A stretch of DNA of 64,000 nucleotides from a virus: positions 13,820 through 77,819 of the IMG/VR virus record IMGVR_UViG_3300010158_000051. One strand, 5' to 3'. Each line of letters begins with the position of its first letter. Position 1 is the stretch's first letter. Under the pieces are notes generated by a model. That model did no database searches, was not told the DNA's origin, and saw only the letters and a list, made by a program, of their open reading frames with translations. The translations under genes were made by a program, and so were the position numbers. Positions 43,420 to 59,591 of the stretch are shown here, piece by piece.

Positions 43420-45664
43420 TGGGTGCATACAATCGTTGTCCCGATTGTGGGAGTTTAAAGAAGCGTCACATGCCATTAGGGGATAAAAAGGTGTGCATTG
43501 ATTGTTATAATGAATATGCAGCATTTGCATGGTTAAAGGAGCAAAAAGAAAAAGATGGATAAAAAAAAGTTAAGAATGGGAATAAAAAAGGCACAAACAA
43601 TGAAAAAATGCGATCACACTTGGTATATGAAAGAGCCAGAAATCCAATGTACGAAATGTCTAGAAGTCTGGGAAAGTGATGACAAATGACCCACGATTGC
43701 ATATTTAATTTAGATTTAGATGGGCAGGTAACTTGTTCTATATGTGGCGCGATGGATGATGATATGGATAATAGTATGTTTGAAACACAGGTGGATTTTG
43801 AATGAATGAACGAGAGTTGAGAGAAGAATTAGTTAAGCAGCTTGAAGTCCTTAAATACAAGGTGGATGGCACCCCAATGGAGTCCATAATGGCTCATTTA
43901 TGGGTAAATAAGTGTATAGAGATTGTAAGACCGAAAGATTGAGCAAAAAGCAGGAAGGATATTTGCCTTGTCAGGATTACCCAAATACGGTATAATTAAT
44001 ACGGTATGGTAAGGTGGTTGAATTTATGGGTTGGTTATTTTTGCCGTTGGCAATAAATTTCTTTTTTCTTTGGAAACTAGAAAAACACGATCATGATATG
44101 GCTAAAAAGCACTTTGGCGAATTATATAAACAATACGAGAAGTTAGGCAAAAAATATGAAAAAGAACAACGTAAAAACATCGCAGCGGGGATTAAAGAGA
44201 GATTCAAAAAACAAAGCCCGAATAATCAGGGCTAATAAAAAACGGGATTGGCACCACATGGTAGCCCAAGTAAAGTTTATGCAAGATTATATGAAGAAGG
44301 TACAAGACGGCGGGTCTGGAAGTAAAGATGCCTAAAGAATCAAGTATAATGAAGATGGATTGGAAAGCTTTAGGCTATTGGCCTGTATATAAAGATGGTA
44401 AATTAGTTTGGGAGAAACAAAAATGAACTGGATACAAGCAGCAGTAATATTTGGTCCAATTATATTCCTATTAGTTGCCTTTTGGGATGACATTAAATGA
44501 GCGAAAATAATGGAACAGTATTGTTTGTTTGTCCCTCATGTGGCAAGTCAAACAGAATAAAATATAATGATAAGATAGTCTGTAATAGTTGCATATACGG
44601 GGAGAAGAAATGAGCGAAAAAGTGGAAAACAACATAATCAATTTACCCATAGAAAATAAGGTCACAGATGAGGAATTTAACCTATTTATGGAAGCTTTGT
44701 TAGGACCATATAAGGGTGGAGGATATAACCCAGAATGAGTTACATGCACACATATGAGTACGAATGCACATGCGGATACAAGGTAAAGATGGAGATCCAT
44801 AAGGTCCTTGATAAGCATCATAATCAGTGCGTTTGCGGGAATACAATGGATTTAAACTTCTATATGAGAAGTCCAGATACGAGAGCGGAATAAAATGGAA
44901 ACCAAAGAAAAGACAGTTTGTTATACATATAAGGTAGAGATGATTGTCCAAGTATTGGCTGATAGTGAAGAGAAAGCTAAGGCTATGCTAGATGATAAGG
45001 GTGGATATGTAACCCGTCGTAAAGTCTCAATTATAGACTCAGTAGCCCTGCACAGCGGGGATACTCTAAAAGTAGCAAAGGGCGGGAATGATAAGTAATA
45101 CTGAATGGCTTATACTAGGCATAATGCTCCCTTATACTATAGTAATAGTACTAGGTATACATAGATATGAAGCTAAGCTTAAGAGAATAAAAAATGATCT
45201 AGATATTCTAGAAACAGATTTTTTTGACTTATATAATGAATACTGCAATAAGAGCTCAAATGCACAACATTACACTCAAATTCAGCTAGATAATATAGAC
45301 CTACGTAAGACCATATCCGACCTAGATGTTGCCAATAAGTTGCTTCAACAGCAAAATAGGCAATTAAAGGAATCTCTAGCCCAATCCCGCCTTCCCCAAT
45401 ATGAGTCTAGTGTCTATCAGAATAATCTATGGGCTAATCAACAAGAGTTAGAATTAGAACACAAATACATTAAGGATAAACCATGAGCTTCGTAATACTT
45501 GCAGTGATTATATTGATTTTAATTGCAGTTGTTCCGTTAGATAATGATAAGTAAAGGAAATATGGATTATTTAAAAAAGATTCCCACCGAATGTAAGCAC
45601 AAGATAACAGTTGTAGATCAAAAACTTATCTGTGCTTATTGTGGTGAAGCAATTAAACTATAAT
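43399..45664 (+). other. Cluster of very small hypothetical ORFs (e.g. 44014-44235, 44895-45098, 45088-45486 and several under 60 aa)
   Basis: Back-to-back short ORFs with overlapping ATGA junctions. No recognisable family. Confidence 0.5.
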
Positions 45665-45696
45665 AAGATAAATATACATTATATAAGCTATATTCT

Positions 45697-45732
45697 ATGG
45701 TTTAAAGTGGAGTAAAGTGGAGTATTGTGGAG
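45697..45732 (+). promoter_or_regulatory. MraZ-type direct repeats (GTGGAG x3, 10-bp period)
   Basis: ATGGTTTAAA-GTGGAGTAAA-GTGGAGTATT-GTGGAG. Confidence 0.65.
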
Positions 45733-45773
45733 AATAAATACAGTAGTTATTATTTATTTAACAATTCATTATA

Positions 45774-45789
45774 TGTTTCACGTGAAACC
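45774..45789. promoter_or_regulatory. parS (ParB-loading) site
   Basis: TGTTTCACGTGAAACC, a 15/16 match to TGTTTCACGTGAAACA. Confidence 0.8.
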
Positions 45790-45848
45790 ATGTTATAGAA
45801 CGATACATGATGGCGTTCGTAATGTCAAGTCCATATACGCATAAAATA

Positions 45849-45864
45849 TGTGATTAATATCACA
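45849..45864. promoter_or_regulatory. CRP/GlxR box (first of 9 perfect copies)
   Basis: TGTGA-N6-TCACA at 45849, 45948, 52398, 53798, 54940, 55214, 57415, 58022 and 58137. Confidence 0.75.
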
Positions 45865-46202
45865 CATAATATGCCTATAAAATTGGACAAAATAGGACAA
45901 AATGTACACAAAATAGGGTTATTTTGTCCATATATTGAGATATATTGTGTGAATTTGATCACATTTAATGTATCTCTATTTTTGTATACATTATATGATC
46001 AACATCACACTTTATATGCTTGACTTCCAGCGAAATTTATGCATCTTCGTAATGTCTGCATATTTGAATATACATTTATATAGACATATGTTTCTCCAGG
46101 TATTATTTGGTATGTTCGTAATGTCTGGAAAGTTCCAGCGAAATTCCCGCCCCTTCGTAATGTCTGGATCTGAGCTACGCCTGCTCCTGCGTTTGGAAAT
46201 GC

Positions 46203-46237
46203 GAGAGACCCCCACACCCAACATGTGGAGGTCTCTC
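46203..46237. terminator. Hairpin ending the leftward gene block
   Basis: GAGAGACC-CCCACA...TGTGGA-GGTCTCTC. Confidence 0.5.
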
Positions 46238-46267
46238 TTGGACTTGGCGGAAAAGCCTGAACGCCCG

Positions 46268-46561
46268 TTATGTCAGCATGAACTCATTCATTGGTTCATC
46301 TTTTCTGACCATTCCCGTAAGGCCCAACTCCTCTAAGGAATACTTTAATTGCTTACACATCTGGTGAATTTCTACCAGTGGCATTGGTACCATTTCTTGG
46401 TCAGCCATTAGGATTACATAGTTAACTAAATAACCTAACATGGCCTCATTTACGTAGCGGTTTTCTCTTGTCATTTTAAGTGCAAGAATAGCGGGACTAA
46501 CTCTTTGGTCCGCCAACCCTGCAGTAATCTTGTCATGTAGTTTTTGGTCAACGCTTGCCAT
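46268..46561 (-). CDS. Hypothetical early protein
   Basis: GAGGAG RBS and TAATG coupling. Confidence 0.65.
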   Translation of the reverse strand: MASVDQKLHDKITAGLADQRVSPAILALKMTRENRYVNEAMLGYLVNYVILMADQEMVPMPLVEIHQMCKQLKYSLEELGLTGMVRKDEPMNEFMLT

Positions 46562-46743
46562 TATGGATACTCCTCTTCGAAAGACAATGGTATCATATCA
46601 TCTTCTAACTCGTCAACTCCTAAATCAATAAGTAACTTGGCTATGATGTTATGAGCTGCGATATTCTCAGTCTCGGACCCACCCCATAAAAGCTTTTGGG
46701 CAAGTGCCAACTGACGATTTAGATGCTGATCACTGATCTTCAT
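46561..46743 (-). CDS. Hypothetical early protein
   Basis: Operon coupling. Confidence 0.55.
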   Translation of the reverse strand: MKISDQHLNRQLALAQKLLWGGSETENIAAHNIIAKLLIDLGVDELEDDMIPLSFEEEYP

Positions 46744-47095
46744 CTTCTTCCTCCTCAAGGTCTTCTACGGGGATAACGATATCTCTATCAATCATCCAGT
46801 CCCATATGTGCTCGTCTAGGTCTTCTGTTCCATACTCCAGTGTGAAGCCATTCTTGTCTGCATCTTCCCAGAACATTTTAAATATATCATGCATCTCAAG
46901 GCCAGGCTTGATAACATATTCATCATCAACGTTTTCCAAATGATTCTTGTACTTGTCAACAACTATATCCCAGGTCCATACCCAAACCAGGGACGGGAAT
47001 ACAGGAAGGTCTGTAATCAATGCTGATATAGTCTGTAACTTATCATAGATATCCCACATACGTGTTTCATCTTGTAGATCTAATTCATTATCCAT
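46730..47095 (-). CDS. Acidic hypothetical early protein
   Basis: GAGGAG RBS. Confidence 0.65.
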   Translation of the reverse strand: MDNELDLQDETRMWDIYDKLQTISALITDLPVFPSLVWVWTWDIVVDKYKNHLENVDDEYVIKPGLEMHDIFKMFWEDADKNGFTLEYGTEDLDEHIWDWMIDRDIVIPVEDLEEEEDEDQ

Positions 47096-47175
47096 TTAGC
47101 ACTCCTCACATAGTACATCGCCATAGGGAATAGATTTCCCACATTCACAACACCAGTCTTCATCATACATTCCCA

Positions 47176-47451
47176 TTATCCTTTTGCCTCCCTATCAGCA
47201 ATTGCAAAACTTAGGTCATATGTCATTTTATATAGTGCAGTTAAAGCGTCAAGGAAGCCTTCTGCATATTTTCTTTCAAACCCGTCCATTGCGTCAGAGT
47301 AGTCATTCTCTTCCTCAACTTCAACAGCATTTGAGTACTCTTGCTCCCAGATAAGCATTAGGTTCTTAAGTTCACCGTGCATTATATCTAGTGGGTTAAT
47401 CTTGTAATTAACCAAACGTTGTAAATGTGGTGCCAACTCTTGCTTTTCCAT
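47176..47451 (-). CDS. Hypothetical early protein
   Basis: TAATG coupling. Confidence 0.65.
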   Translation of the reverse strand: MEKQELAPHLQRLVNYKINPLDIMHGELKNLMLIWEQEYSNAVEVEEENDYSDAMDGFERKYAEGFLDALTALYKMTYDLSFAIADREAKG

Positions 47452-48236
47452 TATGATTCTACCTTTCGATATTCAGGGACTTTGGTTTCCAAGTATACAC
47501 TGTGGGTCTGACATTCTGCTACAGCCTCAAGGTCTGCCTCGCCAAGCCAATTGCAGTTACTACAGATTTCACCACATTCATTTTCGCAATAATCTAATGT
47601 ATTATATGAATCACAATCTCTGCATTGATTATCATATTCAACTAGTTCTTTTACATTACCACGAACAATCTCATACTCCCCACCCCAACCTGTCTCTTCC
47701 TCAAATTCTAAAGTAAGCAGGCAGTTAGGAACAAGATTAGATAGTTTAGTTAAGATAGTTACAGCAGGTGACCATGCTGTTTCATATTTGTAGACAAGCC
47801 AGTTATCTTCGCCTTCTGATTTATATTCAAGTAACTCCGTATTTGGATACTCATCTTCATCACGAACGGCTACATCCCATTTGGTTCCCCAATTTGAGTT
47901 GTTCCATGAATACCAGTCTTTTTGAGTTTTTGCATGTGCAACTTCTTGTGCAAACCAATTAGGGTCTTTCATATCTGCCCCAGACCGTGTAGGTTGGCAA
48001 GCATATTCCTCATCTGTAATACCGTCGTCTTTATACGAATGGATATTAAAGAAAGAGAATACAGGATTAGAGTAACTAACCTGTGTAACTTTGGTCGGGA
48101 ATCCAGAAGATGAAATATCACCCATACCATATGTCTCTTGTGCTAATGTAAAAGGTTTATTCAATCTATCCTTAATCATATCAACTTCTGATTTAGGACC
48201 TTGTATAGTTAATGTGTTATATACCCAGTTTGGCAT
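47451..48236 (-). CDS. DUF1281/YubB-like ferredoxin-fold protein with C-terminal Cys cluster
   Basis: 'MPNWVYNTL', 'WYSWNNSNWGTKWD' and 'YETAWSP'. Confidence 0.75.
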   Translation of the reverse strand: MPNWVYNTLTIQGPKSEVDMIKDRLNKPFTLAQETYGMGDISSSGFPTKVTQVSYSNPVFSFFNIHSYKDDGITDEEYACQPTRSGADMKDPNWFAQEVAHAKTQKDWYSWNNSNWGTKWDVAVRDEDEYPNTELLEYKSEGEDNWLVYKYETAWSPAVTILTKLSNLVPNCLLTLEFEEETGWGGEYEIVRGNVKELVEYDNQCRDCDSYNTLDYCENECGEICSNCNWLGEADLEAVAECQTHSVYLETKVPEYRKVES

Positions 48237-48261
48237 TGTTCTTACTTTCTCTTAGTTGGGG

Positions 48262-48450
48262 TTAGTTATCTGAATCTAATTCAGCGATGATTTCATTACA
48301 AGCATAAGCGATTTCGTTGAATACTAAGTCGCCTTCTGCATTTACTGATGATAGGGCTTCAATGTCCATTTGAGTTTGGATAATACCTGCCTCATCTGTG
48401 AGTTCGGGTAGTTCAATGTAGTATTTAGCAGATACATAAAATCCAGCCAT
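48262..48450 (-). CDS. Hypothetical early protein
   Basis: GAAAGGA RBS downstream of a TGTCAG promoter. Confidence 0.65.
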   Translation of the reverse strand: MAGFYVSAKYYIELPELTDEAGIIQTQMDIEALSSVNAEGDLVFNEIAYACNEIIAELDSDN

Positions 48451-48485
48451 TTTGTTTCCTTTCGTTGGTTTATTGTCCTATTGTA

Positions 48486-48728
48486 TCAGAGGGCACTGAC
48501 ATTTTCAATAGCATCTTGCTTAAAGTACCAGCCAAGTGACCTGATTGATAGGTTAATCTCTGATTCAGGATACCTCTTGATCATCCAGTTCAAAGCTTGG
48601 GCGGGATTCCGAAATTCAGCATAGGAACTATGATATAGAGAATCCCTTATATCTAAACCCCACATGTTTATTCCACCTGGGGAACATGAATAATCAATTT
48701 CGTAAAGTTCTGCATTCATAGGGTTCAT
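48486..48728 (-). CDS. Hypothetical early protein (possibly leaderless)
   Basis: TAGACA...TATTAT promoter directly upstream. Confidence 0.55.
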   Translation of the reverse strand: MNPMNAELYEIDYSCSPGGINMWGLDIRDSLYHSSYAEFRNPAQALNWMIKRYPESEINLSIRSLGWYFKQDAIENVSAL

Positions 48729-48906
48729 AATACCATATCGTAAAGGTTACTGTCTAGTAGCATCTCATTATATGAGATATATTTCATGTGATAAATATCA
48801 CGTCTTCATAATCCCGTGATTAAATATACATATCCGTAATGTCCGATTTGTATGCTTTTGTCGGCACGGCTGTGCCCACTTTGTCAAGTGGGACACGCCT
48901 GGCTAT

Positions 48907-49062
48907 TTAATCAAAATATCCTTCTGCCCAAAGCCCATCCAAAAAGCTTTTCACCATGTTTAATCCAATAGTGATTCCTTCTTGTGCAGGTGGAATATAA
49001 AGCTTTGATTGTTCTACCATGTCAGACATGATGTTTAGATCTTCTAAATCATACCCCAACAT
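48907..49062 (-). CDS. Hypothetical early protein
   Basis: AAGGA RBS before ATG 49062. Confidence 0.55.
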   Translation of the reverse strand: MLGYDLEDLNIMSDMVEQSKLYIPPAQEGITIGLNMVKSFLDGLWAEGYFD

Positions 49063-49417
49063 GGTATTCCTTGACTTCCTGTTGGTATTCAATGAATGAA
49101 TCAAACGAGTGCCAATTACCATCATCACAAACTTCTTGTGTGATTAGATTTACTTCTACTGTTGTGTCAAAGTAATCTTGGTCTGCTTTTGCTAAATAGA
49201 TTCCGAAACCAGTTTCCTCGTCCCGTCCCTCTTTAGTTAGTTGGTCTATGATGTTGCGAAGTGCGTATGATGTATCACCAATGTTTAGCCGCTTGCTTGC
49301 GAATAACAAAGCGTGTGCCAAATCTTCACGCCAAGAAGTTTCGCCCCAATGTGAATACAGCACAATGTTTGGAAGTTCCTCATCTGTCTTGAATACGAAA
49401 TTGACTCGTGCTCCCAT
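49049..49417 (-). CDS. Conserved phage hypothetical protein ('MGAR...LYSHWG')
   Basis: Recognisable phage motif. TAATG coupling. Confidence 0.65.
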   Translation of the reverse strand: MGARVNFVFKTDEELPNIVLYSHWGETSWREDLAHALLFASKRLNIGDTSYALRNIIDQLTKEGRDEETGFGIYLAKADQDYFDTTVEVNLITQEVCDDGNWHSFDSFIEYQQEVKEYHVGV

Positions 49418-49485
49418 TACATTACACCCCCGATTGCGATTAGAATTGCGATTGCGATTACGCCTAGAATTATGAAGTTTGTCAT
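49417..49485 (-). CDS. 22-aa hydrophobic peptide MTNFIILGVIAIAILIAIGGVM
   Basis: Directly after a TTGACT-N17-TAGGAT promoter. Its stop overlaps the next ATG (TAATG). Confidence 0.55.
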   Translation of the reverse strand: MTNFIILGVIAIAILIAIGGVM

Positions 49486-49504
49486 TTGCCTATCCTATCA
49501 GATT

Positions 49505-49535
49505 GGGGGTGGGGAGTCAATGACCCCCCACCCAA
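49505..49535 (-). terminator. GC-rich hairpin overlapping the next promoter
   Basis: TGGGGGTGGGGAGTCA-A-TGACCCCCCACCCA. Confidence 0.55.
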
Positions 49536-49549
49536 GAGAAGTTATCTAA

Positions 49550-49966
49550 TTAGAGATACTTAGCAATCTGCTTCATAGTGGAAGCATTTACTGTTTCCTC
49601 ATCTGTCATACGCAAGATAGAGAGGGCATTGTTAATTTCCTCTACAATTTCATTGTATGTGTGTTGGTGCATTGTTGTAAAATCACGCTGTGGCTCTGCT
49701 GGGAACTCAGTTTCTTTTACAATCAAATCAAAATCAACATTAAGAGTGTTGTTCCAAGAACGATAGTTTGTGCGGAAGTTTTCAGCCTTCTTGATGTTAG
49801 CGATAGCAAACTCGCCAACTTCCTTACGCCATTTTTCCCGTGACTTTTCATACTTGGCTTCATTTGCTGATTGTTCAGCATAGTCCTTTTTGATTGTTAC
49901 CAACTTTGTTTCCAAAGCCTTGATTACCTTTGGTGTTGCTACCTTTACTGTGATTGCTCTACTCAT
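49550..49966 (-). CDS. Hypothetical early protein
   Basis: AAAGGA RBS and own TGTCAG promoter. Confidence 0.7.
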   Translation of the reverse strand: MSRAITVKVATPKVIKALETKLVTIKKDYAEQSANEAKYEKSREKWRKEVGEFAIANIKKAENFRTNYRSWNNTLNVDFDLIVKETEFPAEPQRDFTTMHQHTYNEIVEEINNALSILRMTDEETVNASTMKQIAKYL

Positions 49967-50117
49967 TTTTTTCCTTTGTTAGTTGGGTTGGAGGTTTTAT
50001 TATACCAGAGGGGTCTGACATAAACTTAGGTGCTAGTTCTTACTTACGACATTGGGCTAGAACTCTAGCAAACTGCCCCTGTTTCGTTATCCCCTATTAT
50101 AGCGTAGGGGTCTGACA

Positions 50118-50345
50118 TTATGCCTCGTATTTGGGCATACCTACCCTGACTTCTTTGTGATTTACAGCACTTAGGATTTTACCCCCAAAGGCTGCAATAA
50201 TCTTTGCCAGTTTTATTTCATCTGCACAGGTGATCTCAACCTGCATATTTTCTAGCATCTCATATTCAATGCCATAGTTCAAGCATTTGCTCAAACCATT
50301 AGACATACGAGCTTTTGACGGGACTTCAACTATTGCAACAGCCAT
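50118..50345 (-). CDS. Hypothetical early protein
   Basis: TAATG coupling. Confidence 0.6.
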   Translation of the reverse strand: MAVAIVEVPSKARMSNGLSKCLNYGIEYEMLENMQVEITCADEIKLAKIIAAFGGKILSAVNHKEVRVGMPKYEA

Positions 50346-50947
50346 TAGTATGCACCTTCTTCTACTCTATCAACATCATAGTCATTGACGCTAATCTCTG
50401 AACCAAAAGAGTCAATAGTTAGGTTATTGCGAACCATATCTTCAATGTCATAGTCGCCGTCTGCCATATCAACTTCAATAGTCATATCAACACGAACCCA
50501 AGCGGTTACTTCAATTTCCTTAGTTAGTGGAACATCAAAGATTTCTGCAATTTGTGAAAGTGTATCTTGCTCTGATGAGTCTGCATAAACTTCTTCAAGC
50601 AAAGTGCGTAGTTGGCTTTCTTTACGATAGTATTCGTTCATTTTTGTTTGATAAGATTTATCACGATAAACCAAAGCACGAACATCTGACTCTGTATAAG
50701 TTTCTGTTCGCTCAACATCATTTTCAGTCCAGTTGAGAGTCATTGTTTGAGGTGCGGTTGTTGTTTCCATAATTTGTTCTTCTTTCTTTTCGGTTGGGTA
50801 TATTGTAGCATCTAGGACTGACAAAAGTGTTAGGTCGCCCTGACACTCAAAACAGTTTTTATCTCTAAGTGTATTTGATTTAGTTGTAATTTCAATTAGT
50901 GCATCACAAATTGAACACACATAATCTTTTTTATACCAGTTAGTCAT
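50345..50947 (-). CDS. Hypothetical protein with N-terminal CxxC..CxxC and a probable internal start at 50770
   Basis: Leaderless ATG after the 50954 promoter. Internal promoter at 50802 and a purine-rich RBS before METTT. Confidence 0.6.
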   Translation of the reverse strand: MTNWYKKDYVCSICDALIEITTKSNTLRDKNCFECQGDLTLLSVLDATIYPTEKKEEQIMETTTAPQTMTLNWTENDVERTETYTESDVRALVYRDKSYQTKMNEYYRKESQLRTLLEEVYADSSEQDTLSQIAEIFDVPLTKEIEVTAWVRVDMTIEVDMADGDYDIEDMVRNNLTIDSFGSEISVNDYDVDRVEEGAY

Positions 50948-51047
50948 ATCGCAATTATAGCGTATAGGACTGACATAGTTCTACTTACCCGTCAGTAGTT
51001 CCAGTATTTGAGACGCTCCCGTAATGTGATAATGGTCACGTAATGGG

Positions 51048-51069
51048 CGACACGCCCGACTGCGTCGGC
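51048..51069. repeat. Dispersed 21-22 bp GC-rich element CGACACGCCCGACTGCGTCGGC
   Basis: Copies at 51048, 52441, 53821, 55247 and 56013. GACACGCC-only copies at 48892, 53760, 57396 and 57714 (reverse). Confidence 0.9.
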
Positions 51070-51073
51070 CCGC

Positions 51074-51107
51074 TGCATATTTATGCATTGCAATGCATAT
51101 TTATAAA
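51074..51107. promoter_or_regulatory. Tandem ARG (ArgR) boxes
   Basis: TGCATATTTATGCA-N6-TGCATATTTATAAA with 20-bp period. Second pair at 56055-56088. Confidence 0.6.
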
Positions 51108-51119
51108 TTAGAAGCTTTG

Positions 51120-51193
51120 CGATTCCAACGGGACTTGAACCCGCAACCTCTACCGTGACAGGGTAGCGATCTAACCAATTGATCTATGGAATC
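51120..51193 (-). tRNA. tRNA-Asp(GTC)
   Basis: GATTCCA/TGGAATC acceptor, CTACC-ctGTCac-GGTAG, GGTTCAAGTCC. Confidence 0.92.
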
Positions 51194-51197
51194 TTGC

Positions 51198-51224
51198 GAG
51201 CAGTTTTAATTCTTGCTCAGGAAT
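51198..51224 (-). ncRNA. Pseudoknot motif, copy 2
   Basis: ATTC-CTGAGCAA-GAAT-TAAAAC-TGCTC. Confidence 0.65.
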
Positions 51225-51230
51225 ATTTTT

Positions 51231-52280
51231 TTAATTTGTAAGAGCGAGAACTTGCTTTACAATTTTATTTTTTTCTGCTGTAACAACTGGGTCAAATCCA
51301 CTTGCACCAGCCATTAGTGAATCGCCATTACCCTTGCGAGCAGTGCGATAGTAATCAAGGCGTTCTGTGAGTGCATTTACAACACCCCACGCTGTGCCCT
51401 TGATATTTGCATTGGTAGGTGAGTTATGATACAACTCATCAACAAGGAGAACTTTATTCTCCCATTTCTTGATTGAACCCTTAGCGTCCTTTTCAGGCTT
51501 AGCATAAATTGAGTTTACAATCTTTGAGAACTGAGCGTTAGTTACCTCACGAGAGAATAATTCTTTCGCCTGTAACTCAAACTCGTCCATGTAAGCAAAA
51601 GTAAGACCAAGAGCCTCACGAGCAGCAGCAATTTTTCCATCTACTGTTTGCGTGTGGCGAATCTTGAAAGATTGCTTAGCCTTTTTCATTGCAAGGTTGA
51701 GAGTGTTTTGGCACATAACACGAACTGGAGTGATTGCAGATTGAACCGCAACTGAACCATCGTGTGAAGTCCAAACGATGAGATAAAGTTTTGTCTCATC
51801 TGCTGCACCATTAGGGTCAAGAATCATAGTGCGGGGAATTGACATTGAGCCATAGACCACACGACCACTCTTTAGAGAACCCGCAGATTCCCAAACTACA
51901 TCAGGATTTCCATCATGAATATTATCTGCAAACGCAAACAAATCTTCATTCTGAACTGTTTTGTAGCGTGAGCCTACAACTGAGAGAACATCTTTTTGTC
52001 CTGCTGTTGTTGGATTATCACGAACTACAAGATAGTTATCTGAAACTGTTGTGTAGTTAGGTTGTAGCAAATCTGAAACAGATTCTAATTGCACATTCCA
52101 ATTAGAGAGATTAGCACCCTGCAACATTTGTGCTGTTGTAACAGCCTCATCTTGCGTGAATACTTTATTGGCGAAAGAGTGCCAAGCGGGATTAGTGCGA
52201 AGATTTACTGCAAGCGTTGCAGAACCATCGTTGATTTCGGATTGGTGAGCAAGATTGCCCACAGGTGATTGAACTGACAT
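51231..52280 (-). CDS. DUF932 (TIGR03299-like phage/plasmid) protein
   Basis: 'PAWH', 'YKTVQNED.F', 'SHDGS....ITPVRVMCQNTL' and 'GTAWG..NA.TE..D'. Confidence 0.88.
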   Translation of the reverse strand: MSVQSPVGNLAHQSEINDGSATLAVNLRTNPAWHSFANKVFTQDEAVTTAQMLQGANLSNWNVQLESVSDLLQPNYTTVSDNYLVVRDNPTTAGQKDVLSVVGSRYKTVQNEDLFAFADNIHDGNPDVVWESAGSLKSGRVVYGSMSIPRTMILDPNGAADETKLYLIVWTSHDGSVAVQSAITPVRVMCQNTLNLAMKKAKQSFKIRHTQTVDGKIAAAREALGLTFAYMDEFELQAKELFSREVTNAQFSKIVNSIYAKPEKDAKGSIKKWENKVLLVDELYHNSPTNANIKGTAWGVVNALTERLDYYRTARKGNGDSLMAGASGFDPVVTAEKNKIVKQVLALTN

Positions 52281-52421
52281 AGGTTTTTCCTTCTTTCTAT
52301 TTGATTGTTAGACTTATTATAACAGGGGGCACTGACATTTGTCCATTTTGAATCGTAAGATAACTAAACATTTGTCCATAATGTCCAAATTTGACAGTGT
52401 GAGAAATCTCACACGTAATAG

Positions 52422-52430
52422 TTATCCACA
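52422..52430 (+). promoter_or_regulatory. DnaA box TTATCCACA (second copy TGTGGATAA at 55966-55974)
   Basis: Perfect 9-mers, both inside intergenic hubs. Confidence 0.55.
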
Positions 52431-52734
52431 CGTAATACACAGACACGCCCGACTGCGTCGGCATTTTTTTGCGGAAATGTCAAGGCAACACGCCGTATTT
52501 ATTTATGAAATACAAAATAAAAAATAGATAGCACTACAGCGATGGCCCCATACACCAATACATACGCTGCAATGCTATCCATTTTATTTTACCCCTCTTT
52601 AAATAAACTCCGTTAGATCTCGATCAGAAATTTCATTTACGTCAACACCTTCAGATTCAGCTATAGCTTCCCATAGGTCCTCTTCAGTAAAGTCACCGTC
52701 AGGATGCCATTCGGCCAATACTTCAAATAAACCT

Positions 52735-53028
52735 TTACTCATAGTCTTCACCTGCAAAGTCATCTTGACACCATGCATCTAAGTGATGCGATTCAATTAA
52801 TGCCCATGCTGGAGCACTATTTTTTCCACGCCAAGATACGCCTTCAGGCAATTCAATTAAACGCTCCTGGCTATCTTCCCAATATGCGTCAATTGCATCT
52901 ATGCAAGGTTGCACCATAGAGTACGGGACGGGTGGGTAATGGTTACCTCGCAAGTGCATTGCAATTGCAGATTCCATATCTAGGCCCAAGGTACCATCCG
53001 CTAATTCATTTGCTAGGTTGCTTCCCAT
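52735..53028 (-). CDS. Conserved actinophage-type hypothetical protein ('HLRGNHYPPVP')
   Basis: Operon packing. Confidence 0.7.
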   Translation of the reverse strand: MGSNLANELADGTLGLDMESAIAMHLRGNHYPPVPYSMVQPCIDAIDAYWEDSQERLIELPEGVSWRGKNSAPAWALIESHHLDAWCQDDFAGEDYE

Positions 53029-53030
53029 TA

Positions 53031-53294
53031 TTAATTACCTGCCAATTCAATAACGGCGTGAGAGCCATCTGCGTTGATACGATATAGTTCTTGTGCAATT
53101 TCCTCACGAGATAAGCCTTTACCTATCAAGTCAAGCACTGCGGATTTATTCATTGCAATAAACGCACCTTCGGGGAGCATTGCAATTCTTGGCATGAAGG
53201 GAGAAGTTGGAGAAACTTTAGAAATAAACTTTACGCCATCCACTTCAAATGGAAAAGAATTCCAGCCAGTTGTGTTTAGTTCATGCATTTTCAT
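53031..53294 (-). CDS. Hypothetical early protein
   Basis: TAATG coupling. Confidence 0.6.
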   Translation of the reverse strand: MKMHELNTTGWNSFPFEVDGVKFISKVSPTSPFMPRIAMLPEGAFIAMNKSAVLDLIGKGLSREEIAQELYRINADGSHAVIELAGN

Positions 53295-53581
53295 TAGTTA
53301 TTTTCACTTTCTACTTGTTGGGTAATTGTATCAAATTCACGGATTTCGTCTGCAATATTAGACATAAGTTGCTCACCTAGGCAAGCATATGCAACGGTTG
53401 TAGCGGTCATAGCGGAGAGAGTTGCAGAATACCGAAACATTAGTTCTGCAATATGATTTAGTTTGCTGAAGTCACCTTCACACAATTCCATTGCCATATC
53501 ACGGGCTGACGACATTACTTCATCTGAAGTAAGGGCTTCGGCTGAAGCCTGCTGGATTTTCATTGCAGTTGCAATAGACAT
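53294..53581 (-). CDS. Hypothetical early protein
   Basis: GAGG RBS and TAATG coupling. Confidence 0.65.
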   Translation of the reverse strand: MSIATAMKIQQASAEALTSDEVMSSARDMAMELCEGDFSKLNHIAELMFRYSATLSAMTATTVAYACLGEQLMSNIADEIREFDTITQQVESENN

Positions 53582-53697
53582 TAGTTTGCCTCTTTCTTGT
53601 TGGGAGTTGTAATTGTAGCAGATAGCACTGACATTGCTTCCACTGTTGATTGCTTGCGTGTCTCTTCGACATGCTTCTTGAATTCATCTAAGTTCAT
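53581..53697 (-). CDS. 38-aa early peptide containing an internal promoter
   Basis: GAAAGG RBS before ATG 53697. Confidence 0.55.
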   Translation of the reverse strand: MNLDEFKKHVEETRKQSTVEAMSVLSATITTPNKKEAN

Positions 53698-54106
53698 GAG
53701 TTTACCTTTCTTGTTGTTGATAATGGAAGTATAGCAGGTTAGACTGACATATTCAACACGACACGCCGTAATTCTCACGTAATGAGACACGTAATCATGT
53801 GACAAATCTCACACGTAATGCGACACGCCCGACTGCGTCGGCCCGTGTCCGTTATGTCCAAATTATTTACGCATAAAAACGCAAATTTTAGATCAGCTAT
53901 TCAAATTTATTTTTATATTTGCGTTTGCGATTATATTTTTTCTTTGACGGAATTGCAGTCGCAGCATTACTGCGACGCAACTCTTGAATTCGCTTTACTT
54001 TTTCCATAATTTTATTCCTCACACTTGCCACAGTAGCAATTTCCTAATTCTTTATTATTGCACTCCTCTTTAGTTAGTGCAGGTTCCCATTTACGCATTA
54101 CATCGC

Positions 54107-54316
54107 TCATCGCTCTACGACCCTTCTGCCTTCACGATAAAAAATTTTGGTATAGCATTTACCTGACGGGGTGTAGAGATTTACAGTAGAATACTTATCT
54201 GCAAATCCCCAGTCAATAAACTTTGCAAACTCTTTGTGTGCTTGCAATTCATCTGAGTATTGTCCTGACCAATAAGGTGAGGTCTGCTCATCATAGGTTA
54301 CTGTAATTTTATACAT
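54107..54316 (-). CDS. Hypothetical early protein
   Basis: GAGG RBS. Confidence 0.6.
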   Translation of the reverse strand: MYKITVTYDEQTSPYWSGQYSDELQAHKEFAKFIDWGFADKYSTVNLYTPSGKCYTKIFYREGRRVVER

Positions 54317-54318
54317 TG

Positions 54319-54504
54319 TTAAGCCTCGCTTCCTGAAAATAATTGGTGGTATTCCGCAACCTCATCAGCGGGAATGTTGTAAGGGTTGCAATCGCAATAA
54401 TCAAAATCATAGTCGCCGTCTGGAGATACCCAGCCAGTTACGCCTTGACCATAGCAATCTGAGCAATTTACGATTTGCTCTAACGCATTTTTTATATTTG
54501 ACAT
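54319..54504 (-). CDS. Small Cys-containing early protein
   Basis: CxxCxGxG...CxC with GAAAGGA RBS. Confidence 0.6.
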   Translation of the reverse strand: MSNIKNALEQIVNCSDCYGQGVTGWVSPDGDYDFDYCDCNPYNIPADEVAEYHQLFSGSEA

Positions 54505-54612
54505 TTAGTTGTCCTTTCTTGTCTGACATTTACATTTTGTTATTTCTATTGTATCACCTGCCACTGACACAGTGGCAAGCGTATCACAATTAGAACAGAT
54601 AAAGATTTCCAT
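54505..54612 (-). CDS. 35-aa Cys peptide (not in ORF track)
   Basis: MEIFICSNCDTLATVSVAGDTIEITKCKCQTRKDN, TAATG-coupled. Confidence 0.5.
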   Translation of the reverse strand: MEIFICSNCDTLATVSVAGDTIEITKCKCQTRKDN

Positions 54613-54845
54613 TAGTTATCTTCAATCTGAACGCAAATTGTTGCGTAAAAATCTGAACCCCAAGTAGAAACTTTTTCGGGATTATAAGTTGGTCGGACTC
54701 TTACAGTATAAGCCTGAAAGTTTGAGCCATACCATACATTATCACGCTTTTCTGCGGATTGGATTATTCCATCTCTATGTCGCCCTAGTGAGCGATAGTA
54801 TTTACCTTCTAATAAGGTTTCTATGTCGTATTTATAAGTTGCCAT
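54612..54845 (-). CDS. Hypothetical early protein (small beta-barrel-like)
   Basis: AAAGGAAG RBS and own TGTCAG promoter. Confidence 0.65.
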   Translation of the reverse strand: MATYKYDIETLLEGKYYRSLGRHRDGIIQSAEKRDNVWYGSNFQAYTVRVRPTYNPEKVSTWGSDFYATICVQIEDN

Positions 54846-56037
54846 TTTAGCACTTCCTTTTCTTTTTTGTTATGCGATTATTGTATCAGAGGGGTCTGAC
54901 ATTTTGGGGGATTTAGAGGGTGTGTCTAAATTATTTATTTGTGATTTATCTCACATTAGAGGCAATTTATGCAATTGCACCCTTTAGATGAGAATAGATA
55001 CTTTAGCAATTCCTTGCGAGTATAAGCGTCTAATCCATAAGACGATTTAACACCACCATTGTGGTATTCGTGGACTATTGTTGAGAATAGTGTTTCATTT
55101 AGTGTAGTCATTTTGACCACCTTTCTTTATTTTCTAATACTGGAAGTATAACAGATAAAACCGCTACTGTCTAGTATACTGGGTAGTAGTCTCACTATTT
55201 GGAGCGTGAACTTTGTGAGAAAAATCACATCTTACGTAAGCGTGTGCGACACGCCCGAGTGCGTCGGCATTTTTTTGCAGCTGTTACACTGCAAAAATTT
55301 TATTTGAAATCTTTAAAAATTTCTTCAACAATTTTTAATTGCTCATCATTAAGATGATCCAATTGAATTGCATCTGCAAAACCAAAAATATCTTTTTCCA
55401 TTATTCAACCTCTTTCCATTCAAAACAATAAGAATCTGAAACAAAATTATTTTTTATTACATTGTCAAAAATTGATAACGCTTGGTCATCATTTTCTGCA
55501 TCAATGTCTAACCAAACACCAAATGTGTATTTTTTCATTAGAGGGCTCCCTCTTGAAATAAACCAATTTCAATGTCTAGCATTTCAGCGGGAGTGGCTTC
55601 GGATAAATCTACCCAACCAGCACCCTCTTCATTTATACGAAAAATTTCAATGTAACCCATTATTTTACCCACTCACTTATTTCATAGTAGGACATAAATT
55701 CTGCAAGAGTCATTAGACCCTTGTATTCATTACAGGATACGCAGAAATTTTCATTAGCGTATTGTGAACAGAAACAGCAAACAATTTTATTTGCATACTC
55801 TACAGGGAGAGTGTTTAGTGTAAATGTAGTCATTTTAGACCACCTTTCTTTAGAGGATTTCTTTACCTCTTGTTTTTCTTTATACTGTAATTATAGCAGG
55901 GGGGTCTGACATTTACTGACGGGTAACTATGACAAATCGGACATTTCAAAATGTGACTTACATCATGTGGATAACTTGAGCGTAAAATTTAATGTGACTT
56001 AAGTCATGTGGACGACACGCCGTCAGCGTCGGCACTT

Positions 56038-56053
56038 TCGAACAAACGTTCGA
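56038..56053. promoter_or_regulatory. Actinobacterial LexA (SOS) box
   Basis: TCGAAC-AAAC-GTTCGA, a perfect match to TCGAAC-N4-GTTCGA. Confidence 0.8.
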
Positions 56054-56090
56054 ATGCATATTTATTCATGATCGTGAATAAAAAAGCTGC

Positions 56091-56118
56091 GAGCAGTTTT
56101 ATAACTTACTCAGGTTAT
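56091..56118 (-). ncRNA. Pseudoknot motif, copy 3
   Basis: ATAAC-CTGAGTAA-GTTAT-AAAAC-TGCTC. Confidence 0.65.
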
Positions 56119-56123
56119 TTTTT

Positions 56124-56306
56124 TTATTCGTGTTTTAGATTTTTGTAGACTTCTTCGTGAAATCTATCGCTATCAAATTTCTCGTTATCATCTGCGAACA
56201 TCTGAGAAAAATCATAGACTAAATCTTCGAATACTTGTTGCGGAATTTCATCACCATAAGAGTTTAGAATTTCTGCTGTTGCTACATAGTCTTTGCGTGT
56301 CATCAT
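56124..56306 (-). CDS. Conserved small phage protein ('MTRKDY...A......F..DN..FD..RF')
   Basis: AAAGGA RBS and a widespread phage motif. Confidence 0.75.
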   Translation of the reverse strand: MMTRKDYVATAEILNSYGDEIPQQVFEDLVYDFSQMFADDNEKFDSDRFHEEVYKNLKHE

Positions 56307-56332
56307 TTTTTTATGTGTCCTTTTCTTTTTAG

Positions 56333-56503
56333 TTACTTGCTTGTTTTTACCATAGCAAAACGGCGAGAGCCATTTGCTAAAACTAAACTAACGCGAGTTA
56401 CCTTATTAGAAATCGGGGAGAAAGAAGCGATACGACCTGTAACGCCTGTCTTGCTAGTAGTGAAGAGGTCTCCGATTTGGTATGTGTATCCTGATAGTGT
56501 CAT
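56333..56503 (-). CDS. Small SH3/KOW-like protein, paralog B (not in ORF track)
   Basis: MTLSGYTYQIGDLFTTSKTGVTGRIASF..., with AAAGGA RBS. Confidence 0.7.
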   Translation of the reverse strand: MTLSGYTYQIGDLFTTSKTGVTGRIASFSPISNKVTRVSLVLANGSRRFAMVKTSK

Positions 56504-56540
56504 TCTGTTATGTCCTTTTCTTTTTGTTGGGTTTTGTGTT

Positions 56541-56569
56541 GAGCAGTTTTAATAGACTTGCTCAGGTCT
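56541..56569 (-). ncRNA. Pseudoknot motif, copy 4
   Basis: AGAC-CTGAGCAA-GTCT-ATTAAAAC-TGCTC. Confidence 0.65.
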
Positions 56570-56589
56570 TTTAGCGTATTTCGCTAAGG

Positions 56590-56751
56590 TTAGATTGTTA
56601 CTGTGGTGAAACGCTCTTCGCCATCAACATCAAGAAGCACTACTGTGCGGTTTGCGTCTTTTGGCTCGATTGCTTTGATGACTCCAGTAATTCCGCTCTT
56701 CTGTGTTGTGAAGAGGTCGCCTACTTGGTATGTCTTATTTGCTACTGTCAT
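56590..56751 (-). CDS. Small SH3/KOW-like protein, paralog A (not in ORF track)
   Basis: MTVANKTYQVGDLFTTQKSGITGVIKAIE..., with AAAGGA RBS and own promoter. Confidence 0.7.
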   Translation of the reverse strand: MTVANKTYQVGDLFTTQKSGITGVIKAIEPKDANRTVVLLDVDGEERFTTVTI

Positions 56752-56819
56752 TTTTTTGTCCTTTTCTTTTAGGTGGTGATTTTCCTAGTATAGCACTAGG
56801 GTCTGACATTTTGTCAAAT

Positions 56820-56966
56820 TTAGAGGATTTCGTCTGGGTCGAAATCGGGGGTCGCTATGAATGAGAATTCATCTGAGTTCTCTTCTTCCCAAATGTCGTT
56901 CTGTTCTGAAATGAAATCGAGGGGGGATAGAGTAGAGGTTCTTTCCCAAGAGTAAGTGTATGACAT
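56820..56966 (-). CDS. Small acidic early peptide
   Basis: TAATG-coupled to an upstream 35-aa TM peptide (56966-57073). Confidence 0.5.
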   Translation of the reverse strand: MSYTYSWERTSTLSPLDFISEQNDIWEEENSDEFSFIATPDFDPDEIL

Positions 56967-57065
56967 TAGTTTAGTCCATTCTTTTTGAGGTCTTGATAGA
57001 TAGCATAGCATAGGGGTATGACAACACCCAAGAGGGCTAGTTGCACTAGGGTAGTAATTATTCTA

Positions 57066-57227
57066 TTAGTCATTTATTTCTACCTTTCGCAAGTGTGCCA
57101 CTACATTTTTAGAAACCTTTTGTAGTTCGGCTACTGTCTTATTCATCTCATCAGCACTAGACGCTATGAATCCTACACCTAGTAGTGTAGCACCATCCCA
57201 TAGTGAGTATTCTATTTTCATTTTCAT
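57066..57227 (-). CDS. 53-aa early protein (not in ORF track)
   Basis: MKMKIEYSLWDGATLLGVGF..., downstream of the 57364 promoter. Confidence 0.55.
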   Translation of the reverse strand: MKMKIEYSLWDGATLLGVGFIASSADEMNKTVAELQKVSKNVVAHLRKVEIND

Positions 57228-57420
57228 TCTTTATCTTCTTTCTGTTAGATTCTTTTTTGTTGCTTAGGATTATTTGCCCTATTGCTAGGGGCTCACCTAA
57301 GATTTTTCTACTGGCAGGGATTTTGCCTATTTACTTTTTCTACCCTTATTTAGTTATGTCGCTAGTATAGCAGGGGGGTCTGACAAATAGGGGGCGACAC
57401 GCCCTATGTGTCTATGTGAT

Positions 57421-57624
57421 TTAGCTCACACGATTAGCGAATACCCATTGGGACTCGCTAGGGGTTAGATAGCGGTGAGAGATAAGACCCTCAGAGGCTA
57501 CTAGATGGACATACGCCATACGGCTAATGTAGTTACCATTAGCAAGGCGGAAGATGGAATTAGACTTAGTATTACTACTAGCCATAGGATGAGTAGGTTC
57601 TACTACTACTGTTAGTGAGTTCAT
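57421..57624 (-). CDS. Hypothetical protein, first gene of the leftward block
   Basis: GAAAGGAG RBS before ATG 57624. Confidence 0.65.
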   Translation of the reverse strand: MNSLTVVVEPTHPMASSNTKSNSIFRLANGNYISRMAYVHLVASEGLISHRYLTPSESQWVFANRVS

Positions 57625-58175
57625 TAGAACTCCTTTCTTTATCAAGAACCTTTCTTGATTTTCTTTATAGTAGAATACTAGCACACTAAATTGGAAAAAT
57701 CAAGTCTAAACACGGCGTGTCGCAAAAAATTTATGTGATCTACCCCACATATGGGTGCAAAATGTTCGATTTGACCGTTATGTGCGGACTATTTTTTTTC
57801 AAAAAAGGTTTTTGAAAATGGAATCATACAAATTAAAATTCCATTAACATTTTGATCAAAAGTAAAATACTCATTAGTAACATAGCTATGGACAAAAATG
57901 GCGGGAACTGCTAGAATTGAGCTATGAGAATAGTTATATGTGATATTTGTAAGAAAGAAATCGAGTCTAGATCTAAATTTGCTCACATGACACTCTTAAA
58001 TCACTTAAAAGAGCATAAAAATGTGACTTAGATCACATATATGTTAAACTAGTTTATTATGAATACTTTTATAGCAGCAGTTGGAGTTGTAATTATTATC
58101 CTTATGACATTTTCTAACTTTATAGATCACTAAATATGTGATTTATGTCACACTTATAAACTCTAAACCTAAACT

Positions 58176-58659: not shown

Positions 58660-58902
58660 CTAATCCATTTTTTCGGGCTCACTCATTTCCGCCCTTATAA
58701 TTTCAATTAAATTATTATATAAAGTGGAGCCAGCGGTATTTTTATACCCGCATGCAAAACAGTGTAGCACGATTTTTTCTTCTTCCTGCTGATGGCTCAA
58801 TGGGAAGATCGCTTCTTCATTTTGGTGCATAGGACAGGCGAGGAAGTTTACCCTCCCCGCCTGTGCTAATTGTAAGTATTCTGAAAAGACTTGTATTCGC
58901 AT
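58660..58902 (-). CDS. Small zinc-binding protein
   Basis: CPMH...CFAC with TAATG coupling. Confidence 0.6.
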   Translation of the reverse strand: MRIQVFSEYLQLAQAGRVNFLACPMHQNEEAIFPLSHQQEEEKIVLHCFACGYKNTAGSTLYNNLIEIIRAEMSEPEKMD

Positions 58903-59591
58903 TATGCGGTCACTAAGTTAGCCCTATTTAAAACAGAATTTACATATTGCCGAACAGTAGGATTTCCTGGAACTGGTTTGTTCCAAGTGCTCTTATTTCC
59001 TGCTCGGGAGGGCAATAGGTGTGCTGCAATTGCTTTTTCCCAGTCATGGTACTTATTGTAAGTAGCGTTCAATTCCAAAATTATCTTTTGATCTTGAACC
59101 CATTCTGGGGCATGGCAAGCATCCTTGTAGCCTTTATAGTTATTCCATGTTGAAGGCATGTATTGGTACGCACCACATGCTGAACTGGATCTGGACTTGC
59201 GATAATACGCTCCCGCTCCACCTGTTTCAGTGGATTTAAGTGCATTTGCTAGTCTTGAGATTATTACCCGCTTGTCTACTCTTGTTGTTTTTAGATTTAG
59301 CTCGTGGCTATAATCGGGCATTAAAAAAGTGCTTCTAGAAGATAAATCATTAATTAAATAAAGAGTTTTATGCATTCTTTTATTTAATATATTATTATAA
59401 TCTATATTAATTATATCTTTTATATTAACTAAATTATTATATTTATTAATATATAATATATTTTTATTATACACTATTGCTTCCTTCATTGCAGCGTGTG
59501 CTTGTTGATCCACACCAAAAATTAGTGTGAGAATCATCACACATATCATTGTCCACGCTGTCCTTATCCTTGCTTTGTTCTCATTGTTCAT
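58902..59591 (-). CDS. Exported lytic transglycosylase (SLT-like)
   Basis: Signal peptide (AHA-A) and 'ETGG....Y...SSACGAYQYMPSTW'. Confidence 0.8.
   Translation of the reverse strand: MNNENKARIRTAWTMICVMILTLIFGVDQQAHAAMKEAIVYNKNILYINKYNNLVNIKDIINIDYNNILNKRMHKTLYLINDLSSRSTFLMPDYSHELNLKTTRVDKRVIISRLANALKSTETGGAGAYYRKSRSSSACGAYQYMPSTWNNYKGYKDACHAPEWVQDQKIILELNATYNKYHDWEKAIAAHLLPSRAGNKSTWNKPVPGNPTVRQYVNSVLNRANLVTA

Follow-up and report, generated by a model that had tools for sequence, protein, structure and literature searches.

The question raised by this locus is why the spacers between the small genes of an uncultured phage should be filled with sequences that resemble binding sites for many different host regulators. 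The window, that is, the whole stretch of 64,000 nucleotides analysed here, covers bases 13820-77819 of a 77.8-kb IMG/VR virus record (IMGVR_UViG_3300010158_000051; completeness estimate 72%) from a phage with a genome of about 110 kb; the GC content of the window is about 37%. Small genes that point leftward make up a block at 46.2-59.6 kb. The original prediction described about ten non-coding spacers of positions 45660-58160 as hubs of host-regulator sites, and the sequence and motif map show that all ten are present with the motifs ascribed to them. These were proposed to titrate host regulators, to coat the phage DNA with host proteins, or to feed host signals into early transcription; the "early" timing of the block is an assumption. 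On balance, we lean towards the explanation that the spacers serve as modular control regions upstream of promoters, giving host CRP and PafBC an input to transcription, and that they are not decoys.

Fourteen near-identical leftward promoters, a class that the original prediction leaves unmentioned, were found at 47.5-57.4 kb. With positions counted relative to the -10 hexamer, taken as -12 to -7, each consists of TGTCAG at -28 to -23, a gap of 10 nt and the -10 hexamer, usually with TG at -15/-14. The block 45660-58160 was compared with 200 dinucleotide-preserving shuffles (window counts below are given as observed vs. shuffle mean), and the 14 promoters stand against a mean of 0.17. Relatives were collected with the DUF932 protein of the block as a query, which retrieved 161 related IMG/VR contigs; 80 loci amounting to 1.34 Mb were analysed, the backwards pattern of each motif serving as the control. 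There, 697 unique promoter copies give the consensus aAATGTCAGTgcc..tcTGcTAtAAT, and the -35 region is not conserved. PafBC is a DNA-damage activator with the published motif tGTCgg(N10)tA(N3)T, in which the -26 element occupies -28 to -23; RNA polymerase with SigA reads this motif by "sigma adaptation", and host polymerase with sigma-A reads such a geometry only with PafBC (PMC8635444). The block promoters possess the -26 element, the 10-nt gap and tA(N3)T, and have no -35 consensus, so that by their sequence geometry they fit the PafBC architecture of Actinobacteria. Generic sigma-70 promoters were rejected as an explanation, since a scan gave 52 observed vs. 52 expected, with no excess; the block promoters are a special class. 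In the relatives, 977 promoters precede 108 downstream gene families, and the PafBC-type promoters of the complete relative G002 are limited to the same span as its CRP boxes.

Six of the 14 promoters are accompanied by a hub. The other eight lie directly after the preceding gene, all on the minus strand, at 47492-47513, 48480-48501, 49999-50020, 50096-50117, 50802-50823, 53612-53633, 54548-54569 and 56787-56808. Three further hubs have ordinary -35/-10 sigma-A promoters. Outside the block, genes of G000 and G002 use extended -10 promoters of the form TGnTATAAT (14 forward copies in G000 and 29 in G002); the existence of two promoter classes in the phage suggests two temporal classes.

The second main component is the CRP box. 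The window contains 10 perfect 16-bp TGTGA-N6-TCACA palindromes with an AT-rich centre, which qualify by sequence as CRP/GlxR sites; they match the CRP consensus (PMC2844151) exactly, at 10/10 bases, and the consensus of the host's own protein may differ. Nine of them fall in the block vs. 0.04 in the shuffles, and with one mismatch allowed the whole window holds 17 sites vs. 3.05 expected. In the relatives the box occurs 352 times vs. once for the control and is by far the commonest palindrome, with 279 unique contexts, the next unrelated one being GAGCA-N11-TGCTC with 56. The logo of 274 sites reads TGTGA[T/G]-AT-rich-[A/C]TCACA. A Rex operator was considered instead and rejected, A being found at position 6 in only 5% of the sites. 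In nine near-complete relatives (107-120 kb), which carry 2-8 perfect boxes per genome, all 47 boxes lie within one span of at most 8 kb per genome.

The CRP boxes also hold fixed positions relative to the promoters. Family-wide, their centres peak at -64.5, -74.5, -84.5/-85.5 and -96.5, and another group lies at -69.5; after dereplication at <70% identity, 80 spacer groups give a Rayleigh R of 0.72 at a 10.5-bp period (p ~1e-18). In the window the sites are centred at -65.5, -73.5, -74.5, -74.5, -83.5, -84.5, -85.5 and -96.5, those at the three sigma-A-type promoters included. The original prediction proposed to look for conservation in relatives with different flanking genes, and this was found: CRP-bearing promoters precede 32 gene families, and within one family the site can shift by exactly 10 bp. 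An alignment of the orthologous hub of the DUF932 gene from 20 relatives, in which identity averages 39%, shows conservation of the promoter, the CRP half-sites, TTACG and a GC element, and of nothing else. The motifs are retained in more than 100 relatives before many different genes, and their densities hardly vary among lineages with 63-98% identity in the marker protein.

Other motifs accompany these two. The consensus sequences of parS, DnaA, LexA and ARG sites used for matching are the textbook ones. The expected excess over shuffled DNA was confirmed for the main motifs of the block: GACACGCC 9 vs. 0.14, TCTCA-N5-TGAGA 2 vs. 0.03, the ARG-type box 2 vs. 0.01, the DnaA box 2 vs. 0.10 and TAC-N6-GTA 8 vs. 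2.6. The GTGG triple, parS and the LexA box have a single copy each, for which the shuffle means are about 0, parS being present in 0/200 shuffles. ACATTACG, which was absent from the original list, reaches 6 vs. 0.35. TGTCC, which was on that list, is not enriched (22 vs. 18.4) and has to be dropped as a motif. The corresponding counts in the relatives, motif vs. backwards control, are 519 vs. 22 for GGCGTGTC, 258 vs. 16 for the DnaA box TTATCCACA, 70 vs. 0 for GTGGAG-N4-GTGGAG, 60 vs. 1 for TCTCA-N5-TGAGA, 20 vs. 0 for the ARG-type box, 7 vs. 0 for parS and 3 vs. 0 for the full LexA box. TAC-N6-GTA shows no enrichment over its backwards control, which is biased by start codons, yet it peaks at -44 and appears to be a minor proximal element.

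In the relatives these motifs also occupy preferred slots: GGCGTGTC at -42.5 and its reversed form at -49.5, TTAC-N6-GTAA at -44, TCTCA-N5-TGAGA at -50 and TGTCCGATT at -56. DnaA-type boxes are found at -93 to -128, often in tandem or inverted, beside TTACG; DnaA boxes usually come in clusters, and the 9-mer has only two perfect copies in the window, matching at 9/9 bases. Tandem pairs of ARG-type boxes, with centres 20 bp apart, recur in several contexts among distant relatives. The window pair that starts at 51074, with 14-mer cores 6 nt apart, has the spacing of ArgR tandem pairs (~20-21 bp) and is a predicted operator. The LexA-type box is single in the window (56038-56053) and lies ~130 bp upstream of a promoter; in the relatives its full 16 bases are found in three close ones only and its 14-base core in three more, and the core GAAC-N4-GTTC is not enriched (33 vs. 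35 for the control). Actinobacterial SOS boxes overlap or adjoin a promoter; the box is accordingly unsupported as an ordinary SOS operator and is the weakest of the host matches. The original assignments to host recognition sequences thus stand as exact matches for CRP, MraZ, parS and DnaA, joined by the PafBC geometry, and lack support for LexA as an ordinary operator.

The assignment of GGCGTGTC to WhiA is a lead only. WhiA sites contain GACAC upstream of the -35 region on either strand, and WhiA works with WhiB bound to sigma-A (PMC10243135). The phage element is similar in that a GACAC-containing box stands just upstream of -35 on either strand, with a WhiB available that is here encoded by the phage, and its placement is compatible with the published pattern. 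It differs in that the conserved motif, 9-10 nt, is longer than GACAC and is also distal: GGCGTGTCG is sometimes an inverted repeat and is found far upstream beside a hairpin as well. Perfect inverted repeats of the form GACACGC-4 nt-GCGTGTC are sometimes seen, in L009 (~8760) and in the relatives at large, where ACACG-N1-CGTGT occurs 30 times. Because such forms occur, the sequence suggests recognition by a dimeric binder.

The hubs share less of their vocabulary than was originally thought. The CRP box and GACACGCC are present in most of them, and the other motifs in one or two each. About 6 of 8 promoter-linked hubs show the order promoter, proximal element, CRP box and GACACGCC; "most hubs" was an overstatement for TAC-N6-GTA, found in four, and TCTCA-N5-TGAGA, found in two. 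All promoter-linked hubs are on the minus strand. The hub at 48727-48900 combines a sigma-A-type promoter (48727-48756) with TCTCA-N5-TGAGA (48763-48777), a one-mismatch CRP box (48787-48802, centre about -74.5), ACATTACG, TGTCCGATT and GGCGTGTC (48892-48899). At 48717-48732, the -10 of the sigma-A-type promoter overlaps the annotated ATG of the open reading frame (ORF) 48486-48728, a second ATG follows 7-9 nt downstream, and the transcript may be leaderless. The hub at 50954-51110 has a PafBC-type promoter (50954-50975), ACATTACG, a one-mismatch CRP box centred at -85.5 (51025-51040), GGCGTGTC and its 5-bp hairpin (51049-51069), and the tandem ARG-type pair from 51074. Directly upstream of this pair, inside the block, is a tRNA-Asp gene (51119-51193, minus strand); several relatives share this arrangement (51074-51193 in the window), with such a pair right beside the tRNA gene of their block. 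In the hub upstream of the DUF932 gene (52316-52530), the PafBC-type promoter at 52316-52337 is followed by a CRP box centred at -96.5 (52398-52413), then by a DnaA box at 52422-52430 and by GGCGTGTC and its hairpin (52442-52462).

The hub at 53728-53990 carries a PafBC-type promoter (53728-53749), GGCGTGTC at -42.5 (53760-53767), TCTCA-N5-TGAGA (53773-53787) and four ATTACG repeats, together with a CRP box centred at -84.5 (53798-53813) and a second GGCGTGTC, this one with hairpin (53822-53842). The hub at 54880-54960 pairs a PafBC-type promoter (54880-54901) with a CRP box centred at -74.5 (54940-54955). At 55145-55300, a sigma-A-type promoter (55145-55173) is followed by a CRP box centred at -83.5 (55214-55229), by GGCGTGTC and its hairpin (55248-55268), and by another hairpin that is terminator-like (55272-55297). 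The densest hub, 55890-56120, includes a PafBC-type promoter (55890-55911), TTAC-N6-GTAA, TGTCCGATT, two degenerate CRP-like sites, a DnaA box (55966-55974), GGCGTGTC (56014-56021), the LexA-type box and an ARG-type box (56055-56068). The hub at 57364-57430 consists of a PafBC-type promoter (57364-57385), GGCGTGTC centred at about -42.5 (57396-57403) and a CRP box (57415-57430, centre -65.5). The last, 57675-58160, has a sigma-A-type promoter with an extended -10 (~57675-57712), reversed GACACGCC at -49.5 (57714-57721) and three CRP boxes, of which 57734-57749 (centre -73.5) has one mismatch, whereas 58022-58037 and 58137-58152 are perfect. One more perfect CRP box, at 59526-59541, lies just outside the range first described, in the 5'-terminal part of the block's first ORF.

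There are four copies of a 21-bp GC element that includes a hairpin. It is not convincing as a terminator, having a stem of only 5 bp and a T-run, on the opposite strand, after 2 of the 4 copies. The palindromes in general were rejected as RNA hairpins, for their stems are of 5 bp and the sites are phased to the downstream promoter. An Rfam search of 45-60 kb returned tRNA-Asp only, and no known RNA family accounts for the hubs. The hubs behave as promoter-coupled protein-binding sites, not as decoys, RNA hairpins or products of chance.

Which proteins would bind there? The original prediction held that none of the named regulators is encoded in the window, and this is supported: six-frame Pfam searches of the record and 4-9 near-complete relatives revealed no DnaA, ParB (ParB_N), MraZ, WhiA, LexA or ArgR domain, and likewise no Crp helix-turn-helix (HTH), cNMP-binding, WYL, HTH_11 or sigma-70 region 2 domain. 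No regulator domain was found in ~30 small ORFs of the block. A sigma-70 region 4 match in a 200-aa ORF of a relative was rejected as a regulator, being sub-threshold; that ORF is an orthologue of the zinc-ribbon ORF of the window. The sole nucleic-acid-binding signature among the small ORFs of the block is a CHC2 (DnaG-type) zinc-finger match (E = 7e-6) in the 80-aa ORF 58660-58902 on the minus strand. Since the phage records contain neither WYL nor HTH_11, activation by PafBC would need a host factor. Host proteins are the simplest candidate binders, because the consensus matches are exact and no cognate domains were found in the phage. ORFan regulators of the phage may account for some sites, above all for the orphan motifs.

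In the favoured explanation the block would be transcribed from the 14 PafBC-type promoters plus the three ordinary sigma-A promoters, about half of which carry an upstream module of fixed slots. The proximal slot, -42 to -56, takes GGCGTGTC in either orientation, TTAC-N6-GTAA, TCTCA-N5-TGAGA or TGTCCGATT; the CRP slot lies on one helical face, at about -64.5, -74.5, -84.5 or -96.5; and the distal slot holds DnaA-type boxes with TTACG. GGCGTGTC with the small hairpin, sometimes followed by ARG-type and LexA-type boxes, marks the module boundary. From this we infer the following mechanism. Host CRP/GlxR at the phased sites would touch the polymerase or PafBC and so modulate firing, and other host factors would tune individual promoters. 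Expression of the block would then depend on the DNA-damage or single-stranded DNA (ssDNA) status of the host and on its cyclic AMP (cAMP) status. The exact host-regulator sites suggest that the phage reads the physiological state of its host.

Several observations weigh against this explanation. The most abundant motifs, namely the orphans GGCGTGTCG, TTACG, TGTCCGATT, TCTCA-N5-TGAGA and TTAC-N6-GTAA, have no secure host match, and GGCGTGTCG extends beyond GACAC. The block is full of ORFans, any of which may be DNA-binding. The abundance of ACATTACG and CACAGGnTTACG varies by lineage, as expected of co-evolving phage factors. The promoters carry a TG-extended -10 and may fire independently of PafBC, and the presence of PafBC and CRP in the host, with these specificities, is assumed. 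The CRP ladder is ~3 bp off the class I positions of Escherichia coli, -61.5/-71.5/-81.5/-91.5 (PMC2844151), and there is the out-of-phase group at -69.5. Finally, ten perfect-consensus CRP sites per genome are unusually strong and would suit a sponge too.

The alternative that survives best, which we nevertheless regard as unlikely, is that the motifs are operators of phage regulators hidden among the ORFans, their likeness to host consensus sequences being coincidental or convergent. Many copies of a phage's own operator are known in other phages, such as the stoperators of L5 and the conserved inverted repeats of phiC31. In the present block ~35 small ORFs have no family assignment, the same five orphan motifs have no secure host match, and the abundance of TTACG variants is lineage-specific. 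This alternative is opposed by the exactness of the canonical matches (CRP 10/10, DnaA 9/9, parS 14/14), the MraZ spacing and the PafBC geometry, by the invariance of the motifs while the marker protein drops to 63% identity, and by the six-frame searches, in which no HTH or regulator domain was found.

It seems quite improbable that the sites serve as a decoy or sponge, titrating host regulators or coating phage DNA during replication and thereby derepressing or disturbing host regulons. Each genome does carry many perfect-consensus, presumably high-affinity sites, whose copy number would rise with replication, and the sites of 45660-46200 are linked to no block promoter. Titration or coating requires no fixed position, yet the sites sit in helically phased slots; they are held to one block of at most 8 kb and are not spread genome-wide, and a relative's genome has just 2-8 perfect CRP boxes. 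Of the three readings originally offered, integration of host signals is therefore favoured over the decoy, the sites being fixed and helically phased with respect to their promoters, and titration and coating are left without support.

A similarly low probability attaches to the view that the hubs are mobile promoter cassettes resembling T4-type promoter-early stem-loops, in which repetition would result from duplication and recombination that shuffle small genes and not from selection at each site. The promoters are near-identical, the 21-bp GC element with its hairpin occurs four times, and one promoter type stands before 108 gene families, all of which speaks for this view. Box-promoter spacers, however, have diverged to <70% identity while the identity and helical phase of the boxes are retained, and the exact host-consensus matches are left unexplained. 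Cassettes would be compatible with the favoured control regions as their mechanism of spread. Chance, or a compositional artefact of AT-rich intergenic DNA, accords with the TGTCC result and the generic sigma-70 scans and is otherwise extremely improbable, being refuted for the main motifs, which exceed both the shuffle and the backwards controls by one to two orders of magnitude.

The long non-coding region 45660-46200, originally counted among the hubs, turned out to be of another kind: it lies between convergent rightward and leftward gene blocks and has no block promoter downstream. MraZ sites consist of three GTG(G/T) boxes six nt apart (PMC12957436), and three GTGG boxes at 45707-45730 on the plus strand, 6 nt apart, agree with this pattern as a predicted site; the third overlaps a one-mismatch DnaA box (45726-45734). 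In the relatives the GTGG repeats occupy 58 unique contexts, always on the same strand and in the same syntenic place (0 in the backwards control), and the triple is conserved and syntenic in 41 of 80 loci. A perfect 14-bp parS-type palindrome, GTTTCACGTGAAAC (45775-45788), matches at 14/14 bases and qualifies as parS by sequence; the 7 related loci with parS fall into about three distinct contexts. In the gap that separates parS from the GTGG/DnaA-like repeats, 40 bp at 45735-45775 are almost pure A+T, a layout like that of an unwinding element. Farther on are three CRP-type boxes within 45849-46009, of which 45849-45864 and 45948-45963 are perfect and 45994-46009 has one mismatch, and four same-strand ACATTACG repeats on the minus strand within 45818-46163 (at 45818, 46048, 46117 and 46156). 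The equivalent region of G002 has 3 DnaA boxes beside GTGG repeats. Region 45660-46200, with its iteron-like repeats, is a separate element, for which a role in replication or segregation is plausible.

DnaA-box clusters thus adjoin GTGG repeats in G002, and a cluster is also found in the Streptomyces phage BillNye. BillNye belongs to the Stanwilliamsviridae, whose Streptomyces phages provide the best match to the DnaE-type polymerase of the present phage (56% identity), and has in common with it the local gene order, a leftward block followed by glycosyltransferase and ribonucleotide reductase genes. This cultivated relative, the closest isolate (GC 53%), has the DnaA-box cluster only; as it has no PafBC-type promoters and no CRP boxes, it cannot be used as a model of the hub architecture. 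In BillNye (NC_042105.1, 119428-119715; L096), four perfect DnaA boxes stand within 300 bp of a non-coding strand-switch region, which may be an origin. A near-identity search among phage records gave 0 matches for the present phage.

The original statement about regulators requires one correction, in that a WhiB-family gene is encoded in the window, in the rightward block (36102-36428, plus strand). WhiB was found in 10/10 related records examined, and among 14 control genomes only Corynebacterium had a match. Because the phage encodes WhiB, an actinobacterial host is well supported by sequence, and the low GC of the phage suggests that this host comes from a low-GC freshwater lineage of Actinobacteria. 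The phage WhiB is a possible partner for the GACAC-type boxes, via host WhiA. A scan of genome contigs with this WhiB returned only probable phage contigs mis-binned in metagenome-assembled genomes (MAGs): L086, L087 and L088 are 81-82% identical to the WhiB region and are probably phage genomes, and the MAGs that contain them are labelled Bacteroidetes, Omnitrophota and cyanobacterium; one of the three contigs is 109.9 kb long.

Among known systems, the closest precedent is phi29, a lytic phage of Bacillus with host Spo0A boxes at its early and late promoters and origins and five host-type parS sites (PMC2731898). Both phages have sites at promoters for host regulators that they do not encode, plus chromosomal-type parS. 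In phi29 these couple phage development and genome segregation to the host state, a coupling that for the present phage we infer from its sequence. The host phylum and the regulators differ, and the present phage has many more promoters, a fixed slot grammar, and another set of sites: PafBC-type promoters, phased CRP boxes and DnaA-, MraZ-, ARG- and GACAC-type sites. A global regulator of the host also controls phage promoters in the CtrA-box phages of Alphaproteobacteria, known for "lytic deferment" (PMC9437464), in LexA-controlled GIL01 (PMC4551915) and in the PhoB-regulated genes of cyanophages (PMC10976474). Each of those employs one regulator, whereas the present phage combines several regulator-type sites in ordered modules.

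The core promoters have their counterpart in the PafBC-dependent (RecA-NDp) promoters of Actinobacteria (PMC8635444, PMC11804915), with which they share the GTC-containing -26 element at -28 to -23, the ten nt, TAnnnT and the lack of a conserved -35 in most copies. The phage versions differ in being located on a phage genome, 14 in 12 kb, in having A instead of G at position 5, in their TG-extended -10 and, in some cases, in an added -35-like TTGA. Class I CRP promoters, for which E. coli is the paradigm and M. tuberculosis whiB1 offers a site at -58.5 (PMC2844151), likewise have a 16-bp palindrome upstream of -35 at positions one helical turn apart; in the phage the ladder is ~3 bp further upstream relative to the -10, and the core promoter is of the PafBC type. 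Literature searches that combined PafBC or RecA-NDp with phage turned up no description of such phage promoters. Repeated modules scattered in blocks of small early genes are familiar from the T4-type promoter-early stem-loop cassettes, the L5 stoperators and the phiC31 conserved inverted repeats. Those repeats are read by phage proteins or serve recombination, and have no match to a host-regulator consensus.

A broader interpretation, which we put forward tentatively and hold to be rather doubtful, is that a widespread lineage of freshwater actinobacterial phages wires one block into at least four host circuits, namely DNA damage/ssDNA through PafBC, cAMP through CRP, DnaA, and division/segregation through MraZ, WhiA/WhiB and ParB, by an ordered cis-regulatory grammar, so that host physiology would gate either the programme of infection or a state that is deferred or of the carrier type. 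If this were true, it would be an actinobacterial counterpart of the use of Spo0A and Spo0J by phi29, with several inputs. If host CRP and PafBC truly drive the promoters, the present phage would be the first, within the literature searched, to take the PafBC "sigma adaptation" route, and a lytic phage that senses the host state combinatorially, of which there are few cases. To judge from the 161 related IMG/VR contigs, lake metagenomes are rich in this lineage, and its probable hosts are hard to study. The regulators concerned are conserved across Actinobacteria. In general, the slot grammar is a natural set of promoter variants for cooperation between CRP and PafBC.

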